From UHGV virus genome UHGV-0136738: a stretch of DNA of 13,932 nt; one strand, written 5' to 3'. Source of the DNA: a virus. The notes beneath the pieces were generated by a model. It ran no database searches, had not been told where the DNA came from, and saw nothing but the letters and a program-made list of their open reading frames with translations. The translations under genes and the position numbers were made by a program. Shown in pieces: positions 1 through 11,660 of this stretch (position 1 is its first letter; the number at the start of each line of letters is the position of its first letter).

Positions 1-186
1 AATACTTCGGGGGTTGTAGGCGTACATTTTAACCGTTCGAGAGGTAAATGGGTCGCCGTTATCTACGACAATCGTAAGCTCGTTTTCTTAGGGCACTTTT
101 CGGATTTCGAAGACGCTGTTGCCGTCAGGAAAGCGGCGGAAATAAGATATAATTACCACGAAAACCACGGATCAGAAAAACCATGA
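1..186 (+). CDS. HNH homing endonuclease, C-terminal AP2-type DNA-binding domain (5'-truncated by window edge)
   Basis: Frame 1 is open from base 1 to TGA at 184..186. Translation NTSGVVGVHFNRSRGKWVAVIYDNRKLVFLGHFSDFEDAVAVRKAAEIRYNYHENHG matches the AP2 pattern recalled from phage HNH endonucleases (G-V-x-[FW]-x-[RK]-x-x-GKW-x-A-x-I, then LG-x-F-x-x-x-E-x-A-x-x-[AR]-[KR]). The N-terminal HNH part lies outside the window. Confidence 0.65.
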   Translation, partial: NTSGVVGVHFNRSRGKWVAVIYDNRKLVFLGHFSDFEDAVAVRKAAEIRYNYHENHGSEKP

Positions 187-320
187 ACATCGTAGCCCCA
201 ATCCCCGCTTTACAGAAACGTATCAAGGAACTCGAAGAGGAAGTGTTAAGACTACGCCAGCAAAGAGACGCCGCTAACGCGCAACTGGCGTTTATACTGG
301 AGAAATTATCAGAAGAGTAG
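183..320 (+). CDS. hypothetical small protein (45 aa, predicted coiled-coil)
   Basis: ATG at 183 overlaps the upstream TGA as ATGA; stop TAG at 318..320. Translation MNIVAPIPALQKRIKELEEEVLRLRQQRDAANAQLAFILEKLSEE is heptad-like and charged. Below the 60-aa cutoff of the ORF track and followed directly by a terminator hairpin. Confidence 0.35.
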   Translation: MNIVAPIPALQKRIKELEEEVLRLRQQRDAANAQLAFILEKLSEE

Positions 321-324
321 AGAA

Positions 325-344
325 AAGGCCCCGTTTGGGGCCTT
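325..344. terminator. Rho-independent terminator hairpin, probably bidirectional
   Basis: Perfect 8-bp GC-rich stem aaggcccc / ggggcctt with loop gttt, followed by atgttttatg on the plus strand and by a T-run on the minus strand (complement of agagaaaa). Sits between the plus-strand ORF ending at 320 and the minus-strand tailspike gene ending at 350. Confidence 0.6.
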
Positions 345-349
345 ATGTT

Positions 350-2242
350 TTATGTCATACGGTAGTGCACCCAAGAAGATATAGCAACACCAACCGGAGT
401 TGGGCGTGTAACGTTTATATTGCTACCTGAAATATACGCTCTGTCAGCGCTAGCAGCGGAATCGTTGGCATACGCGGTGCATATATATGTCTCAGGACCC
501 TTATTAGATATAGTGACTGTCCCACTCCCTCCGCCGGATGCAATAGGAACCTCTATAATTCCGTCTGTATTAACACCGGTATTGCCGACGTAGGTATTCA
601 CCGCAGATTTAATAGCATCTGTTATTGACGTTAGCGTGTTATTACGTATAGTCAGATTGCCGCTAGATTGCAGGTAAAGCGCGGCCCCTAAGATACACCC
701 ACTAACTACACTCCCCGAGGTATTGCTGTAAAAAGCAATAGCGAAGGTATTAACGCCGCCACCAGTCGCTATAGTGCAATCCTTAATCGCCATCTTACCA
801 GCACCTGGCCCTATATTTATCCCGATGTTATTGTTGGTTGCATTTGAGTTCTCCGCGTTTATGTGGAGGCCTTGTAGCAGTTTATGCTGTTGCGCGGACG
901 ACATATTCGGGAACGTGACACCGAAGAATTGGTTAGTACCACTACCATCAGCGGCTATCCATGAGTTTACTAAGCTAAATCCACCATTTACGTTTTGAAC
1001 AACAACACCAGAATCCTGGCAATAATCCAGGTCCAAATTTGATAGATGGATATCGAGGCCGTCGTCGATGTACACCCCGTGTTGGAAGCGTATACACATC
1101 GTTTCGCCATTTACAATAATGGCTTCTGAGCGCACTGGGTTCGACCCATTCCACGTGTAGGTAGTTGGTTGAATACGAATGCCGAAACTATTAGAAACAG
1201 GGCCGCCGTCTCTACTAAAATGACAGCCACTAACCAATACACTGACACATTGGCCGAGTAAATGCAGCCCGATTCGACATGTACCCGCCTGACATGCTAT
1301 AAACTGGGAGTGCCACAAGCCTTGCATAAGATACGCCGTGTCTACCTCATTAACAGAAACGTGGTCAAACTTCCAACCGTACACTTGACGAATTACAGAG
1401 TCGGTAGAAGACAGATTAGTGTCAATACCGTTACATGAGTTATTGCCGGTGATTGATATGTCTTTTAAGTACCTGCCTATAGTATTTGAATCGTAGGCCA
1501 GGCGGAGTACCGCCCCCGTAAGAGTACTTTTTGCTCTAATTTGGGACCCTCTTCCATCCCCGCGGATATTAACTCCAGACGGAACCGTAACGGTGCTTCC
1601 GACATAGTAACCAACAGCATATTTACTAGCAGGTATGTAAACCTCCACACCATTAGGAAACGCCGCAGATACGGCATCGAAGCACGCCTGAAACGCGGCT
1701 GAGTTATCTGTGACCCCGTCGTCCACAACACCAAAATCAAGAACGCTTATGATGTCAGCGTTCTTTTCGTGCTGGCTTCTCGGTGACGAGTCGGTGATGT
1801 CCAGTTTAACCGCAACAAGGGCGTCCCCCATTAGTATGTCAGAGCTATCAGCCAAATTTTCCCGTAAATCCGGGTCAGTTTGCGGCTTCCAGTCGGCGCT
1901 GCCAACCGGATTAAAACTGGCAGGGACCACAACTGGCAGCGTACCAGCGTATGAGTACCACGTCTGGCTAACCGGGTCGTAAACCACTTTGTCGCGGTCA
2001 TTAACTGTCAACGTACCGCCGGTGGAAAAGTCCCATGACACCGGAGAAAAACCTGCGTCGCGTAACACCGCCGGAAGCGTCTTCTGTGTCTGGCCCGTAA
2101 CAGCGTTGGTCGCATAATCGATATCTGCACCGCCAGCGACGCCACCGGACTTACCAGTAATAACCTCGGCTTCAAAAATCTGGTGTTTCTTGGCGGTCTG
2201 TAAATCCGCCAGGCTTAAAACGTCACCACATCCGCTTGACAT
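350..2242 (-). CDS. tailspike / tail fibre protein with pectate-lyase-like right-handed beta-helix (putative polysaccharide depolymerase)
   Basis: 630-aa ORF with ATG at 2242 and SD AAGAGGA about 7 nt upstream. Residues about 165-190, ISVLDFGVVDDGVTDNSAAFQACFDAV, match the signature recalled for pectate-lyase-superfamily beta-helix tailspikes (DFGAxGDGxTDDTxAxQxA). The rest is rich in G/N/S/T-x-V/I repeats typical of beta-helix rungs. It is the last gene of the tail module. Confidence 0.8.
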   Translation of the reverse strand: MSSGCGDVLSLADLQTAKKHQIFEAEVITGKSGGVAGGADIDYATNAVTGQTQKTLPAVLRDAGFSPVSWDFSTGGTLTVNDRDKVVYDPVSQTWYSYAGTLPVVVPASFNPVGSADWKPQTDPDLRENLADSSDILMGDALVAVKLDITDSSPRSQHEKNADIISVLDFGVVDDGVTDNSAAFQACFDAVSAAFPNGVEVYIPASKYAVGYYVGSTVTVPSGVNIRGDGRGSQIRAKSTLTGAVLRLAYDSNTIGRYLKDISITGNNSCNGIDTNLSSTDSVIRQVYGWKFDHVSVNEVDTAYLMQGLWHSQFIACQAGTCRIGLHLLGQCVSVLVSGCHFSRDGGPVSNSFGIRIQPTTYTWNGSNPVRSEAIIVNGETMCIRFQHGVYIDDGLDIHLSNLDLDYCQDSGVVVQNVNGGFSLVNSWIAADGSGTNQFFGVTFPNMSSAQQHKLLQGLHINAENSNATNNNIGINIGPGAGKMAIKDCTIATGGGVNTFAIAFYSNTSGSVVSGCILGAALYLQSSGNLTIRNNTLTSITDAIKSAVNTYVGNTGVNTDGIIEVPIASGGGSGTVTISNKGPETYICTAYANDSAASADRAYISGSNINVTRPTPVGVAISSWVHYRMT

Positions 2243-2254
2243 ATAGAGTCCTCT

Positions 2255-4810
2255 TTAATAAAAACCGTTGCTGAATCCGTCGGAGAAACCGCGACCGAAA
2301 GGCGCGACGCCGTCGTATTTATAGAAACCTTCATCATAGTTGTAGCCCGTAATCTTAACCGTGCGGTCGTCGCCTGGGTCGATTGAAGAGACAACTATCC
2401 TCTGAGCATTATGCCTTGCTTCGTTGCCGAATGAAAACTCAGTTTTTAGTGCACTATTCCCGGTGTAAATGGCTTCCTCTGGTGCGGATAGCATAACCAC
2501 CTCGCGGTCGTGGCCTCCTTTGATAACAGAAATACTCTGTACCGAGCCGTCGCGCTTCTTGAGGATGATTGAGTGGTCGTCCCCTGGGGTGAACGTAACA
2601 GGCTGTGACAGAGTTAGCGTAAGCCCATTAACGGCAACAACATAACCATCCTGAGGCGCGATACGTGAACCTTTAACCACGCTGATTACACCACCCGGTG
2701 TAGCGAGTGCACCCTCTTCGGTAGCTTCGAACTCTACGACAACTTTACTTAACGCGTTGCGCTGGTAGCGACGCCACGCCAGCCAATATGCCTGCTGATA
2801 GTTACGTACGCCCTTCGATTCATATTCCTCGGTGTTTGCTCCGAGTTCTTCCGGGATATAAATCGTTTCCTGTACGTTAGTATCCGGGTCGATGTATGAG
2901 AACGACAGGCTATCATAGGTTGTCGAATCGTTGAACGTGCGCGTCCATTTCTCTGTACCAGTAGTTTTGCTGCGGTGAGTGAACACCATCTCAGGCCCTG
3001 CGACCGGGCGGTCGAAGCGCAGCATAATATCCGCACCTTTACGGTACGCAGTACAGAACACGGCTTCCGCTATGGTCTGAACGATGTCCTGCATGGTTGT
3101 GTCGTAATCGTCGAACGTGTAACAGAATTGCCCGGCTAACTCACTGCCGAAATAGGATTCAATCTCTTCCTGCACAGCGAGTAACTTGTCCATGTTTGCC
3201 GTCGTCAGTTGCAGATTGCCTACTGCGGGGTCGCGGGATAGTCTGATTAGCGACTGAACCGCCTGTGTATTAGGCGTCATTACTGTATCGAATACCCCAT
3301 TGCCGAGGTATTTGTAACACATCTCTGTCGCAATCATGCGTAGTTCCGGGTTGTCGATACTGGCGGCACGCGGCGTCTGTTTGCGGGCACAATGTACGGT
3401 AGTTCGGTTTCCGTAGTGCGGGGTGGTGTCCAGTGACTGACCGTACAGGTTGATGAATGTTATCTCGTCGCTTACCGTTCCGTCGTAGTCCTTATCGAAA
3501 TTCGTTATGCGGCGCATACGGGCGCGGAAACGGGACGCGGTCGGCAATTGCCCGTAAATAGATGTGCCAGCGTAATCGGTGCTATTGCCCGTAATTGTAG
3601 CCCGTACCGTGTAAATGTCGCTCAAAGGGTTGCGTTGAGAGTCAATCATCTGGTACTGGAGTTCTACGGTTACGCTGGTGCGGTTATATCCTCCGTCGTA
3701 TTTGTAGAGGCCGTTCTGCCCAGCTACGTTAACTAGCACACGGTCAACTTCTCCGCGTACCATGTAATACCAGTCGGTCAGGGATACATCATAGGTGTTG
3801 CTAGGGCCGATAAACGTATCTGAACGCTCTGTTAACGTGTACGTCTGCCCGCTAGTCAACGCCGCCCAGTTAGAAGCTCCGTTTACCGCTAATCTTACTT
3901 CGAAGTCGTCAACGTATAAAACCTCAAACGAGCCATTCAGGTTAGTGACATCAGCGACGTCAAAGTTGCTCAGCACCGCGACATCACCAACGCTAAGAAA
4001 TTCAGAAAAAGCAGAGTCACCTGACGGGTCATAGATGTAGCCGGTGTTTGAAATACGTTTAGCTGTACCGTCGGCGCTTGGGTTAGCTCCGATGTCGTTT
4101 GGCGCTTTCAGTACAATACCGTCAACGTCGTCGTTGGAGTATGTAACGTAGAGTTTCTGGTCAATGACGTCGCCGATTTGTAGTTGCGGTGAAGCGGTGT
4201 TGTTCGGAGAAGTATACGGCGCATACACGGCAACAGAGGAACCGGTGATGTCGCTTATCAGGGTGTCCCCCTCCGTGACACCATCAGCCTCGATATGCAG
4301 ATGCCCGCGACCAGCGTCATAGTATGAATACTCCAGCAAAGCACCAGTGGAGTTGAACGCTTTATACGTCTGCATCAGGTCGTTAGGGATTGTCTGCACA
4401 GTCCCGCAGATGTCGTAAGAGCGCTCGTACGGGCGAGGCTTGTTTGAGCGGTCTGTGAGGCTGTTATTCGGAGATGTTGTCTGGTTATTTGTTGCCGTGT
4501 AGTTGGCGTTAGCAGACATGTTAAGACCGAACAGTTTGGCGATAGGCTTGAGGATAAAGCCAAATACCTTACTAACCGCGCTAAGCGCGCCACTACCGGC
4601 GCCCTCAATAATATGGTAAACAGCTTCTTCATCTTTAAGTGCGTCGAAGTCGTCTGTTACGTCAGTATCATCGCCGATTTCACCGAGGTAGACGCGCACG
4701 GGCACACCGTCCGGGATACGGTTAACGACAAACTCCATCGGCATCCCGACGTGTTTTGTACGGTCGAAAGCGCCTTCAGCGTTTCGCGTGTAATGCAGGA
4801 TTATCGCCAA
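2255..4810 (-). CDS. large tail-tip / host-specificity protein (gpJ-like position), putative
   Basis: 851-aa ORF directly upstream of the tailspike and downstream of the NlpC/P60-like gene, the position held by the central fibre/host-specificity protein in lambda- and GTA-like tail modules. Start is ambiguous: TTG at 4810 with GGAG 8 nt upstream, or the first ATG at 4744. No catalytic motif recognised. Confidence 0.5.
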   Translation of the reverse strand: MAIILHYTRNAEGAFDRTKHVGMPMEFVVNRIPDGVPVRVYLGEIGDDTDVTDDFDALKDEEAVYHIIEGAGSGALSAVSKVFGFILKPIAKLFGLNMSANANYTATNNQTTSPNNSLTDRSNKPRPYERSYDICGTVQTIPNDLMQTYKAFNSTGALLEYSYYDAGRGHLHIEADGVTEGDTLISDITGSSVAVYAPYTSPNNTASPQLQIGDVIDQKLYVTYSNDDVDGIVLKAPNDIGANPSADGTAKRISNTGYIYDPSGDSAFSEFLSVGDVAVLSNFDVADVTNLNGSFEVLYVDDFEVRLAVNGASNWAALTSGQTYTLTERSDTFIGPSNTYDVSLTDWYYMVRGEVDRVLVNVAGQNGLYKYDGGYNRTSVTVELQYQMIDSQRNPLSDIYTVRATITGNSTDYAGTSIYGQLPTASRFRARMRRITNFDKDYDGTVSDEITFINLYGQSLDTTPHYGNRTTVHCARKQTPRAASIDNPELRMIATEMCYKYLGNGVFDTVMTPNTQAVQSLIRLSRDPAVGNLQLTTANMDKLLAVQEEIESYFGSELAGQFCYTFDDYDTTMQDIVQTIAEAVFCTAYRKGADIMLRFDRPVAGPEMVFTHRSKTTGTEKWTRTFNDSTTYDSLSFSYIDPDTNVQETIYIPEELGANTEEYESKGVRNYQQAYWLAWRRYQRNALSKVVVEFEATEEGALATPGGVISVVKGSRIAPQDGYVVAVNGLTLTLSQPVTFTPGDDHSIILKKRDGSVQSISVIKGGHDREVVMLSAPEEAIYTGNSALKTEFSFGNEARHNAQRIVVSSIDPGDDRTVKITGYNYDEGFYKYDGVAPFGRGFSDGFSNGFY

Positions 4811-5166
4811 AATTCAATCTCCGTGTACGTGTCTCTGAGGTCCGAAAGGCGGTCAAGACGCACCTGACGCGACGCCATCTCGCAATGACTTACCATACCA
4901 TCGAAATATACCCCTGCGTGCCACACGATACGCCCGCTACGACGATACCCGAGTAGCACAGCGCACATGTTTTCAGGCTTATCAATCTTCGTTAACCCTT
5001 TTGGGTCACTGTGGCCCTGCTCGAATGCTGCGTCTATCGCTGTTGGGCTGGTTACGTCGAAAGCGGGGGTTTCAAGCCCTGCGTCTGCGCGAACCATGCG
5101 GACATGCTGCCAGCAATTACGCTTACGGAAATCATACGGCAGCCCGGTATAATAGTTGATATTCAT
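4801..5166 (-). CDS. NlpC/P60-like small tail protein (gpK / GTA g14-like position), putative
   Basis: 121-aa ORF whose ATG overlaps the upstream stop as ATGA. It has a Cys near the N-terminus (RNCWQHV) and a downstream His-containing segment (VWHAGVYFDGMVSHC) resembling the Cys/His pattern of NlpC/P60 papain-like domains. Position matches the small peptidase gene of GTA-like tail tips. Confidence 0.45.
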   Translation of the reverse strand: MNINYYTGLPYDFRKRNCWQHVRMVRADAGLETPAFDVTSPTAIDAAFEQGHSDPKGLTKIDKPENMCAVLLGYRRSGRIVWHAGVYFDGMVSHCEMASRQVRLDRLSDLRDTYTEIEFWR

Positions 5167-5678
5167 GTTGTCAGAAGACCGCGAAGTAGTGGTATCTCTT
5201 TAGGTGTCATCAGTATACCAGTGCTTCGTTGGTTCAGCATAGGTGTACCTACATCCGCGGAGAACTCGCCCTTCTCCTGGTTGATTGCCTGCAACTCATA
5301 CACTACCGGACCATCTGCGGGGTACGACAGGTCGGTGCTGACGTAGCGCCGGGAGATGAACTTCGGCGACTCGGTATTACTCATCGGAATTTTGTCCATC
5401 TCATCATCCAGTTGATTGAGGATATCCGGGAGAGTAAACGTCGTCGTCTGGTCCATATCACTGTTGTTAGCAGCCCCCGACGCTTCCATCGGGGTAGGTT
5501 CAAACGTAATTGTTTCACCTGTCTCCAGTGTTGCCGTTAGTTCCTGTAGCCCGCGCACGAGATAATACGTCTTTGACAGCAACGGGTGGCTGATTTGCAG
5601 CGTGATGTAGTCCATTTCGCCGTCTGGGTTAGAGGCCAACTTACGGCGATAGGCTGCTTCTACTGATTCCTGGCTCAT
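5163..5678 (-). CDS. tail-tip protein, function unknown
   Basis: 171-aa ORF packed between the 466-aa and 121-aa tail genes with a 3-nt gap upstream and a 4-nt overlap downstream. Acidic protein; assignment is by synteny only. Confidence 0.45.
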   Translation of the reverse strand: MSQESVEAAYRRKLASNPDGEMDYITLQISHPLLSKTYYLVRGLQELTATLETGETITFEPTPMEASGAANNSDMDQTTTFTLPDILNQLDDEMDKIPMSNTESPKFISRRYVSTDLSYPADGPVVYELQAINQEKGEFSADVGTPMLNQRSTGILMTPKEIPLLRGLLTT

Positions 5679-10299: not shown

Positions 10300-10491
10300 A
10301 TGTCCAGTTTACCAATTTCCTTAATCCTGTTTGCACTGCTCGCGTACTTTGCGCCTTTTTTAGTCGCCTATTTCCGTAACCATAAAGCAAAGCTGGCGAT
10401 ATTTATGGCTAACTTATTTCTCGGGTGGGTTCTGTTGCCGTGGGTATTCATTTTAATCTGGGCTTGCAACTCGAACGTGAAAGAGAAGTAG
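10300..10491 (+). CDS. small membrane protein resembling the superinfection-immunity (Imm_superinfect) family
   Basis: 63-aa ORF with SD GAAGGGG 7 nt upstream of ATG. Two predicted transmembrane helices. Sequence YFAPFLVAYFRNHKAKLAIFMANLFLGWVLLPWVFILIWAC fits the pattern recalled for that family (YF-P, A-x-R-x-H, IF-x-NL-x-LGW, W, LIWA). Confidence 0.5.
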   Translation: MSSLPISLILFALLAYFAPFLVAYFRNHKAKLAIFMANLFLGWVLLPWVFILIWACNSNVKEK

Positions 10492-10529
10492 GCTACTATA
10501 AGACAAATCCTAAACACGAGGAAGTAAGC

Positions 10530-11270
10530 ATGGCCCAGAAGAAAATAACCGACGAGCAGTTACAGGAAGAATTGAACGCCGGGGTGAAGAACGTAGATAT
10601 CGCCCGTAAATACGGCATCTCAGACCGCGTTATCCGAATCCGTAAAGCGAAGCTGGCTAAGAAAGGCGTAGGCCACGGGCGTGACGTAAGCCACCTTGTA
10701 CCAGACGGCTACAAGATTAAGGGTACGTCGTCTCTGGTGGACGAGTTCGGTAACACTAAGTTGCAGTGGGTTAAGACAGACACCGATGCCGAACGTCAGG
10801 TTGAGTTGATGAAAGCCGTAGTCGAAGGCATGAAGTCGGAGATTACTCCCGTTCCGCCAGTTAAGGCCGCCCGGGCTAAACGTGACGACAAGCTGCTTAA
10901 CCTGTACACCGTGTCTGATTTCCATCTCGGTATGTTAGCCTGGGCTGACGAGAGCGGCGACGACTGGGATATGAAAATCGCGGAGGACTTATTTTCACGA
11001 TGGTTTGATGCCGCGTTTCAGAAAGCACCGGATGCAGGTACGGGGGTTATTAATCTTCTTGGCGACTTAGCGCACTTCGATAGTCTTGATGCCGTTACAC
11101 CAGCAAGCGGTCATGTCCTTGACGCCGACACGCGTTACCAGAAACTTGTTCGCTATATGATTCGCATGGTACGCCGTGTTGTCGATATGGCACTGGTTAA
11201 ACATAAAACTGTTCGCTTGCTTATCGTGCAAGGGAACCACGACGAATCCGGGATGATTTGGCTGGCGTAG
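10530..11270 (+). CDS. HTH domain fused to N-terminal half of a calcineurin-like (SbcD/Mre11-type) metallophosphoesterase, ending at an in-frame TAG
   Basis: ATG at 10530 with strong SD GAGGAAG 5 nt upstream; the ORF-track GTG at 10425 overlaps the preceding gene. Residues about 17-42 (GVKNVDIARKYGISDRVIRIRKAKLA) look like a helix-turn-helix. Phosphoesterase motifs I (VSDFHLG), II (GDLAHFD) and III (GNHDE) follow. TAG at 11268..11270. Confidence 0.7.
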   Translation: MAQKKITDEQLQEELNAGVKNVDIARKYGISDRVIRIRKAKLAKKGVGHGRDVSHLVPDGYKIKGTSSLVDEFGNTKLQWVKTDTDAERQVELMKAVVEGMKSEITPVPPVKAARAKRDDKLLNLYTVSDFHLGMLAWADESGDDWDMKIAEDLFSRWFDAAFQKAPDAGTGVINLLGDLAHFDSLDAVTPASGHVLDADTRYQKLVRYMIRMVRRVVDMALVKHKTVRLLIVQGNHDESGMIWLA

Positions 11271-11660
11271 ATGTTCAGCACACTGTACGACAACGAGCCT
11301 CGTGTGTTCGTCGATACGTCGCCGGATGTGTATAAGATGGTGCAACACGGCAAAACGACGCTGTTCTTTCATCACGGGCATAAGGCACGCTTCGACGCAA
11401 TCGAGCCTGTTATGATTGCCAAGTTCCGCAAAGCGTTCGGCGAGAGCGTCTACAGCTACGCGCATGTAGGCCACCTCCACCACCAGAAGATTGTCGAAAG
11501 CCGTAACATGATTGTCGAACAACACCGCACCTTAGCCGCTAAAGACGCATACGCCTCCCGTGGCGGATGGATGTCAGGCCGCGGGGCAAATGTAATTACT
11601 TATAGCGCAGAATATGGCGAGGTCGCACGTTTAACTATTTCACCGGAGATGCTGGGATGA
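11271..11660 (+). CDS. C-terminal half of the same metallophosphoesterase (motifs IV-VI), same frame as the upstream ORF
   Basis: ATG at 11271 directly follows the TAG and is in the same frame (11271 minus 10425 is divisible by 3). Contains FFHHGH and AHVGHLHH, matching the downstream His and GHxH motifs of the fold. Ends with ATGA overlap into the next ORF. Confidence 0.65.
   Translation: MFSTLYDNEPRVFVDTSPDVYKMVQHGKTTLFFHHGHKARFDAIEPVMIAKFRKAFGESVYSYAHVGHLHHQKIVESRNMIVEQHRTLAAKDAYASRGGWMSGRGANVITYSAEYGEVARLTISPEMLG

Follow-up and report, generated by a model that had tools for sequence, protein, structure and literature searches.

A putative HNH-AP2 homing endonuclease gene in a variable slot close to, and apparently unlinked from, the tailspike of a Kagunavirus-like siphophage

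The window analysed here is an entire metagenomic contig of 13,932 bp (NODE_1538, ENA ERZ1749178, 2.9x coverage) from a Kagunavirus-like phage of the Guernseyvirinae, showing 87-90% nucleotide identity over approximately 80% of its length to NRG857CP3, K1ind phages and Bas74. At its left-hand end lies the last part of a gene related to HNH endonucleases, followed by a 45-residue ORF (ORF45), a terminator and a convergently transcribed tailspike gene (Table 1), a layout that had been recognised in the initial annotation and that is correct by reading frames, a terminator scan and Pfam and PHROG searches. Frame 1 of the plus strand is open from the first base and encodes NTSGVVGVHFNRSRGKWVAVIYDNRKLVFLGHFSDFEDAVAVRKAAEIRYNYHENHGSEKP followed by a stop, and both other plus-strand frames hold stops; the TGA (184-186) overlaps the ATG of ORF45 in the form ATGA. 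This fragment corresponds to residues 105-165 of a 165-residue protein found in relatives. Because the window spans the whole contig, the truncation of the gene at base 1 is the end of the assembly and is not biological; the contig breaks off at residue 105, and the catalytic HNH half is absent from the window.

Table 1. Features at the endonuclease-tailspike end of the window.
Feature	Position	Strand	Evidence or remark
3' end of putative free-standing HNH-AP2 homing endonuclease gene	1..186	+	61 codons + TGA; 5' part cut off at contig end
AP2-type DNA-binding domain, three beta-strands then helix	7..153	+	fragment residues 3-51; Pfam, profile-PDB, AlphaFold2 model
45-aa coiled-coil ORF (ORF45), function unassigned	183..320	+	phrog_5915, E=4e-27
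GC-rich hairpin terminator AAGGCCCC-GTTT-GGGGCCTT, then T-rich run	325..344	.	terminator scan; common to two convergent units
Tailspike gene, 630 aa	350-2242	-	Tailspike_C, pectate-lyase fold; phrog_28781, E=9e-186
Tailspike receptor-binding/catalytic part, residues ~130-630, putative exchangeable cassette	350..1852	-	Megablast breaks; Pfam
Tailspike conserved N-terminal anchor, putative other homology arm	1853..2242	-	phrog_29731 on residues 1-114
J-like central tail fibre / tip attachment protein	2255..4810	-	phrog_469, E=8e-253; synteny with Jersey, Schulenburg and others

DNA matching ORF45 is present in 561 phage records, and this ORF is 84-92% identical at the nucleotide level to its counterparts in Kagunavirus relatives with an occupied and with an unoccupied endonuclease slot alike; together with the terminator it constitutes a conserved block between this slot and the tailspike cassette. 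In the record of phage Schulenburg a terminator is annotated on both strands at the hairpin site. Among the 22 loci compared (the window, L001-L004, L007, L008, L014, L015 and L022-L034) the stem is GGCCCC/GGGGCC in 21 and AGCCCC/GGGGCT in L028, and the 4-nt loop varies. The loops form reverse-complement pairs (GTTT/AAAC and TTTC/GAAA), as if recombination inside its stem had turned the palindromic hairpin round. Across these loci conservation breaks off precisely where the tailspike stop codon lies.

Elsewhere in the window, a DNA repair exonuclease gene (phrog_704, 10425-11660, plus strand) is split into two ORFs by an in-frame amber codon at 11268-11270, where Bas74 has GAG instead of TAG; an ATG follows directly, and the Bas74 gene is a single ORF of 376 codons. 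At 2.9x coverage, this amber codon could reflect either an error of sequencing or a genuine nonsense mutation. Beside the exonuclease gene, and on the opposite strand within the tail-gene region, is located a gene encoding a 63-residue superinfection-immunity-like protein (10300-10491, plus strand; Pfam Imm_superinfect; phrog_1039, E=1.5e-22), an arrangement that is identical in Bas74.

The C-terminal AP2-type domain that had been proposed for the truncated ORF is confirmed by Pfam, by PHROG, by comparison of profiles with the PDB and by an AlphaFold2 model. The Pfam AP2 model (PF00847) matches the fragment with E=7e-5 and 23.5 bits, which is significant for a search with a single protein, and scores relatives at 16.8-23.5 bits, in all cases short of the gathering score of 33.3 bits. 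The similarity held up when a profile built from 10 homologous C-terminal domains was compared with the PDB, the top four matches being AP2/ERF structures (WRI1 with E=4.5e-4, followed by TEM1, PfAP2 and AP2IX-6). The AlphaFold2 model of the fragment (pLDDT 82) has the beta-beta-beta-alpha topology of AP2, and its best Foldseek matches in the PDB are AP2 domains, headed by 7et4 (Arabidopsis TEM1; probability 0.99, TM 0.62), with E-values that are weak for a domain of this small size. We accept the domain as AP2-like by fold and by profile, representing a divergent phage branch that falls under Pfam's own cut-off. In the PHROG search, phrog_99 (HNH endonuclease) matches the fragment with E=3e-19 at profile positions 211-269 of 383, and other PHROG families annotated as HNH endonuclease also match strongly, far above the level of the Pfam AP2 match.

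Full-length relatives of the fragment were located in IMG/VR contigs L007 (at 4689-5186) and L008, which were found with patterns back-translated from the fragment and show 97% amino acid identity to it. Including these two, the same allele is present in 15 other loci, drawn from IMG/VR, ENA and Logan contigs, with 93-95% nucleotide identity over the part contained in the window, and each of these loci codes for an intact protein of 165 residues with HNH_3 and AP2. Metagenomic loci were used for the allele comparisons because isolated phages offer no close DNA match: 50,697 phage records yielded just 13 partial matches, at 73-90%. The ORF in L007 and L008 encodes 165 residues (MTYWNELFNYDPNTG...EIDHINHIRDDNRILNLRKVVKIDNNRN...NTSGVVGV...), of which the N-terminal 104 (312 nt; MTYWNE...EIDHINHIRDDNRILNLRKV) precede the part corresponding to the window. 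HNH_3 scores 35.1 bits in the full-length allele against a Pfam cut-off of 24.8 bits, with AP2 C-terminal to it; the HNH_3 motif is EIDHINHIRDDNRILNLRKVVKIDNNRN, and the pattern EIDHINH..DNR..NLR...N..N occurs in every full-length copy. A search of 5.8 billion proteins returned only one weak match when the 61-residue fragment alone served as query; with a full-length relative the allele was recovered as one cluster of 31 members (P0002), which shows 97% identity in the 61 residues covered by the window and occurs in the same context in Kagunavirus-like contigs of 40-44 kb. Identity drops to 58% in the next cluster, and none was found between 58% and approximately 97%. Members of P0002 carry names such as 'HNH endonuclease [Escherichia coli]' (EKD3228045.1) and 'MAG: zinc-binding loop region of homing endonuclease' (UVM95104.1); a PDB sequence search with a full-length relative gave no match, and no NCBIfam model matches. 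The presence of an HNH motif upstream, anticipated in the initial annotation, is thus borne out by proxy, in that near-identical relatives carry HNH_3 while the upstream part of the present copy lies outside the contig. These comparisons support the assignment of the fragment to a free-standing HNH-AP2 homing endonuclease, the catalytic half of which is seen only in near-identical relatives.

In every allele-carrying locus the gene is located between a gene encoding an SNF2-type helicase and ORF45, with ATGA overlaps at both ends. The occupancy of this slot varies, and presence and absence of the endonuclease among related phages are sporadic at exactly the helicase/ORF45 junction, in keeping with the synteny that the initial annotation had suggested comparing. 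BUCT789 and hz69 have nothing in the slot, and their helicase stop codon overlaps the ATG of ORF45. A second HNH-AP2 gene, the Jersey type, fills it in Jersey (gp35, AGP24923.1), with orthologues in Schulenburg, fEg-Eco19, vB_Eco_ORH_001 and f18SE, and is followed by the small coiled-coil ORF, the terminator and the convergent tailspike; in Jersey, Schulenburg and ORH_001 it is labelled an HNH or homing endonuclease. This gene resembles the window allele in combining HNH_3 with AP2 and in size (161-163 versus 165 residues), but shares only 49-55% amino acid identity with the fragment and 43-47% with the full-length protein, and the DNA similarity is confined to the last 80-95 nt or so; it would appear to be a distinct allele at the same site. 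In 22664BS2 the slot is filled by an unrelated Toprim-like gene encoding 171 residues (L001:2489-3004), and in AV104 and K1H by a 61-residue ORF of unassigned function. Some records label the 171-residue product 'DNA primase' or 'toprim domain-containing protein', and demigod, SS5 and GE_vB_HIL are judged to have the same Toprim-like content from insert size only. Both flanks were matched in 37 records of an evenly spaced sample, with inserts of approximately 0, +15, +66, +180-250, +480-555 and +510; a full-size HNH insert (+480-555) is present in 5 of the 37. Taken from these comparisons, the helicase/ORF45 junction appears to be a general insertion hot spot with multiple states and is not reserved for endonucleases. 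The helicase upstream of the slot is annotated as intein-containing in the Kagunavirus relatives Shashou (MK931440.1) and Sciku (MK931439.1); such an intein would be a selfish element of a second type close to this site.

The Jersey-type allele has also left a remnant. In Salmonella phage SE124_2FR an in-frame deletion joins its residues 1-14 to the final 45, and many other Salmonella phages match over the identical span, which suggests that this remnant is common among them. The resulting 58-residue ORF (L020:1950-2126) is annotated 'HNH endonuclease' though it contains neither an HNH domain nor the first AP2 strands, and the taxonomy given in this record (Rountreeviridae; Minhovirus) is at odds with its Jerseyvirus-like genome.

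The existence of such AP2-retaining remnants of a related allele at the same site raises the possibility that the present copy is not a nuclease, but either a degenerate remnant or a domesticated DNA-binding protein consisting of AP2 only, for example a repressor, as with CasPR and the plant AP2 factors that descend from endonucleases. The HNH half lies unseen beyond the contig end and could be truncated or disrupted, so that we can only infer the integrity of this copy. The 2.9x coverage and the amber codon in the exonuclease gene add to this reservation. Moreover, AP2 domains have been recruited to silence transcription, and CasPR are AP2 DNA-binding anti-CRISPR proteins in which a CapR zinc-binding domain is joined to AP2 and a nuclease is lacking (bioRxiv 10.64898/2026.02.23.707548). 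However, the frame in the window is open to base 1 and holds residues 105-120 (NTSGVVGVHFNRSRGK), which are missing in the known remnant. All 14 full-length members read from the 31-member cluster are intact at 165 residues and carry HNH_3 (one further member is a fragment of 127 residues), and the window differs from them at just 2 of its 61 residues (E for K at residue 42 and R for K at residue 53). Pfam searches of the window and its relatives detected neither CapR nor any other partner domain. It is therefore very unlikely that the present copy has become a non-nuclease protein.

HNH proteins act as packaging cofactors in some siphophages or exclude competing phages, and homing itself brings marker exclusion as a by-product. 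That the protein encoded here serves its phage in one of these ways, either as a terminase-associated cofactor resembling HK97 gp74 or as a nuclease directed against competitors, is exceedingly improbable: the gene is situated at the end of the replication module beside the helicase and not beside the terminase gene, and its combination of HNH_3 and AP2 is typical of homing endonucleases. Neither the adjacency to terminase or portal genes nor the conservation in all relatives that characterises HK97 gp74-like proteins was observed; the endonuclease gene is absent from most close relatives and hence dispensable.

At third codon positions, the 15 loci compared that have the window's allele are 70% identical in the body of the helicase gene; the figure rises to 79-82% over the final 220 nt of that gene and to 90-91% in the endonuclease gene, and stands at 85-87% in ORF45. 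These loci were collected through similarity to the endonuclease, a bias that the use of third positions and the lack of intermediate clusters lessen but do not remove. Since 90-91% contrasts with 70%, the endonuclease gene appears to be much younger than the adjacent helicase gene, with an apparent gradient of identity on either side. For the final 340 nt of the L007 helicase gene, the best matches (85-87%) come from eight records of both genera, seven of which show an annotated HNH gene behind the helicase, the exception being fBC-Eco01; the other 617 records all reach 80% or less. The 3' end of the helicase gene is the sole flanking tract common to the window allele and to other endonuclease carriers across both genera. 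A universal 'immune' variant of the helicase 3' end in all carriers was considered and rejected, as it holds in a subset of Jersey-type carriers, and many others (the S100 series, f18SE and L13) are at approximately 77% there, as are endonuclease-free phages. Co-segregation of ORF45 with the endonuclease was likewise rejected, given that ORF45 sequences group by phage genus. This combination of sporadic occurrence, exact insertion, a decayed derivative and little synonymous divergence is what classically marks a free-standing homing endonuclease gene.

The free-standing homing endonucleases Seg and Mob of T4, which offer a mechanistic model for the present gene, are located in intergenic positions between conserved genes, are sporadic in distribution, co-convert short flanks and are subject to decay and loss. 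They differ from the window allele in belonging to other nuclease families (GIY-YIG, or HNH with other DNA-binding modules) and to a different phage group. The combination of an N-terminal HNH domain with a C-terminal AP2 domain constitutes a described family of homing endonucleases, which PMC10448857 (citing Magnani et al. 2004) portrays, together with the 'IPA-HNH' proteins of ICP1, as free-standing and encoded near essential genes. The HNH domains of ICP1 covered there are too divergent for Pfam HNH_3, whereas the window's allele exceeds the HNH_3 cut-off. The element is accordingly of a known kind: the slot occupant was annotated in Jersey (2013) and in many later genomes, and the allele itself is already in NCBI nr. 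Papers on Jerseyvirus name homing endonucleases as mobile elements tied to mosaicism (PMC8425127).

On the other side of the terminator, Megablast similarity to relatives crosses ORF45 and the hairpin, ends at approximately 353, at the tailspike stop codon, and restarts at approximately 1851-2048; because of these breaks the exchangeable receptor-binding cassette can be placed roughly at 354-1850. From about 1851/1863 onwards the N-terminal anchor is 74-88% identical in nucleotide sequence to Kagunavirus relatives, and the cassette has no DNA match in 50,697 phage records. Along 99% of its length, the receptor-binding part shares 55% amino acid identity with the endorhamnosidase tailspike of Shigella phage Sf6, a P22-like podovirus. 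No relative above this level was found for it, in 50,697 phage records or among the prophage-like contigs of IMG/VR, nor a second genome with the same cassette; with the closest relative at only 55%, a test of linkage from the tailspike side had no second genome to draw on. The tailspike of this siphovirus is a mosaic across morphotypes, built on a Kagunavirus N-terminal anchor, and the resemblance suggests an O-antigen of the Shigella flexneri type as its receptor.

The stop codon of the tailspike gene is only about 165 bp from the endonuclease gene, and in the initial annotation the endonuclease was suggested to promote exchange of receptor-binding genes. The comparison of loci does not support this suggestion. 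When clustered at 70% identity or more, the receptor-binding regions next to the allele in its 16 loci fall into 12 groups, and one identical 165-residue protein (P0080) adjoins at least eight types of tailspike, with lengths of 626, 675, 721, 776, 778, 782, 837 and 984 residues and with endosialidase, BNR sialidase, GDSL esterase, Phage_spike_2 and Peptidase_S74 among the Pfam domains; the tailspike of the window was not seen with any other member of the allele. The endonuclease and the receptor-binding region appear to be unlinked because one allele, and even one identical protein, stands beside so many of these regions. The boundaries of the cassette, namely the tailspike stop codon with the terminator at one end and the N-terminal anchor at the other, are the same in the endonuclease-free BUCT789, hz69, AV104 and 22664BS2, the tailspikes of which are equally unrelated. 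In the simplest reading of these sequences, the endonuclease would have homed into genomes with many different tailspikes, and co-conversion tracts would stop before the tailspike. Elevated identity around the endonuclease gene ends at the terminator. The interpretation offered in the initial annotation is thus sustained in part, in that HNH_3 in the relatives and synteny favour an HNH-AP2 homing endonuclease, whereas promotion of receptor-gene exchange is not supported, the allele occurring beside 12 unrelated regions.

Endonuclease-driven exchange of the tailspike cassette deserves consideration nonetheless, since nuclease genes are reported at the boundaries of genetic exchange between phages (PMC10448857). 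A break at the slot might be resected through the non-homologous tailspike gene and repaired from the donor with co-conversion of host range, or might simply raise recombination locally; the proximity of the two genes, the abrupt end of homology at the 3' end of the tailspike gene so close to the endonuclease, and the extension of the identity gradient into ORF45 would all fit such a process. Linkage is nevertheless absent, endonuclease-free Kagunaviruses have the same cassette boundaries, ORF45 tracks genus while the tract that carriers share is on the helicase side, and tailspike mosaicism is the rule across the subfamily although only about 5 of the 37 relatives sampled have the full HNH gene at this site. 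The lack of linkage speaks against co-conversion of host range with the endonuclease; a general stimulation of recombination by the break may still occur. On balance we consider it improbable that the endonuclease drives exchange of the cassette. A particular version, to which we likewise give little credence, is that, in Kagunaviruses that lack the endonuclease and share the infected cell, breaks made by it at the helicase/ORF45 junction lead to more recombination over the conserved block of 170 bp and so speed up tailspike swaps. If it were true, one protein beside at least eight tailspikes would reflect rapid break-stimulated shuffling and not independent homing into diverse backgrounds, and a selfish nuclease would be an accelerator of host-range change.

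Our preferred reading, in which we have considerable confidence, is that positions 1-186 encode the AP2 half of a 165-residue HNH-AP2 homing endonuclease, present as a precise cassette in a Kagunavirus-like siphophage, and that the tailspike exchanges independently of it. The gene would sit after the last replication gene, that of the SNF2-type helicase, and before ORF45, and would be transcribed towards the terminator that it has in common with the convergent tailspike gene. In a mixed infection, the AP2 domain may guide the HNH (beta-beta-alpha-metal) nuclease to an endonuclease-free junction; the putative cleavage activity and target site are both deduced from sequence comparison. Repair of the break from the endonuclease-carrying genome would then copy in the gene together with short flanks. 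The tailspike cassette, for its part, appears to be exchanged separately, with the ORF45/terminator block and the N-terminal anchor of the tailspike as its arms.

The proximity of the endonuclease gene to the tailspike would be of biological note only if break-stimulated exchange were true. The helicase/ORF45 junction of the Guernseyvirinae can be viewed as an insertion slot with multiple states, and as such provides a marker for comparative genomics. The homology arms of the tailspike, that is the 45-residue ORF with the terminator on one side and the N-terminal anchor on the other, are sharply defined and could serve in host-range engineering of small siphophages.
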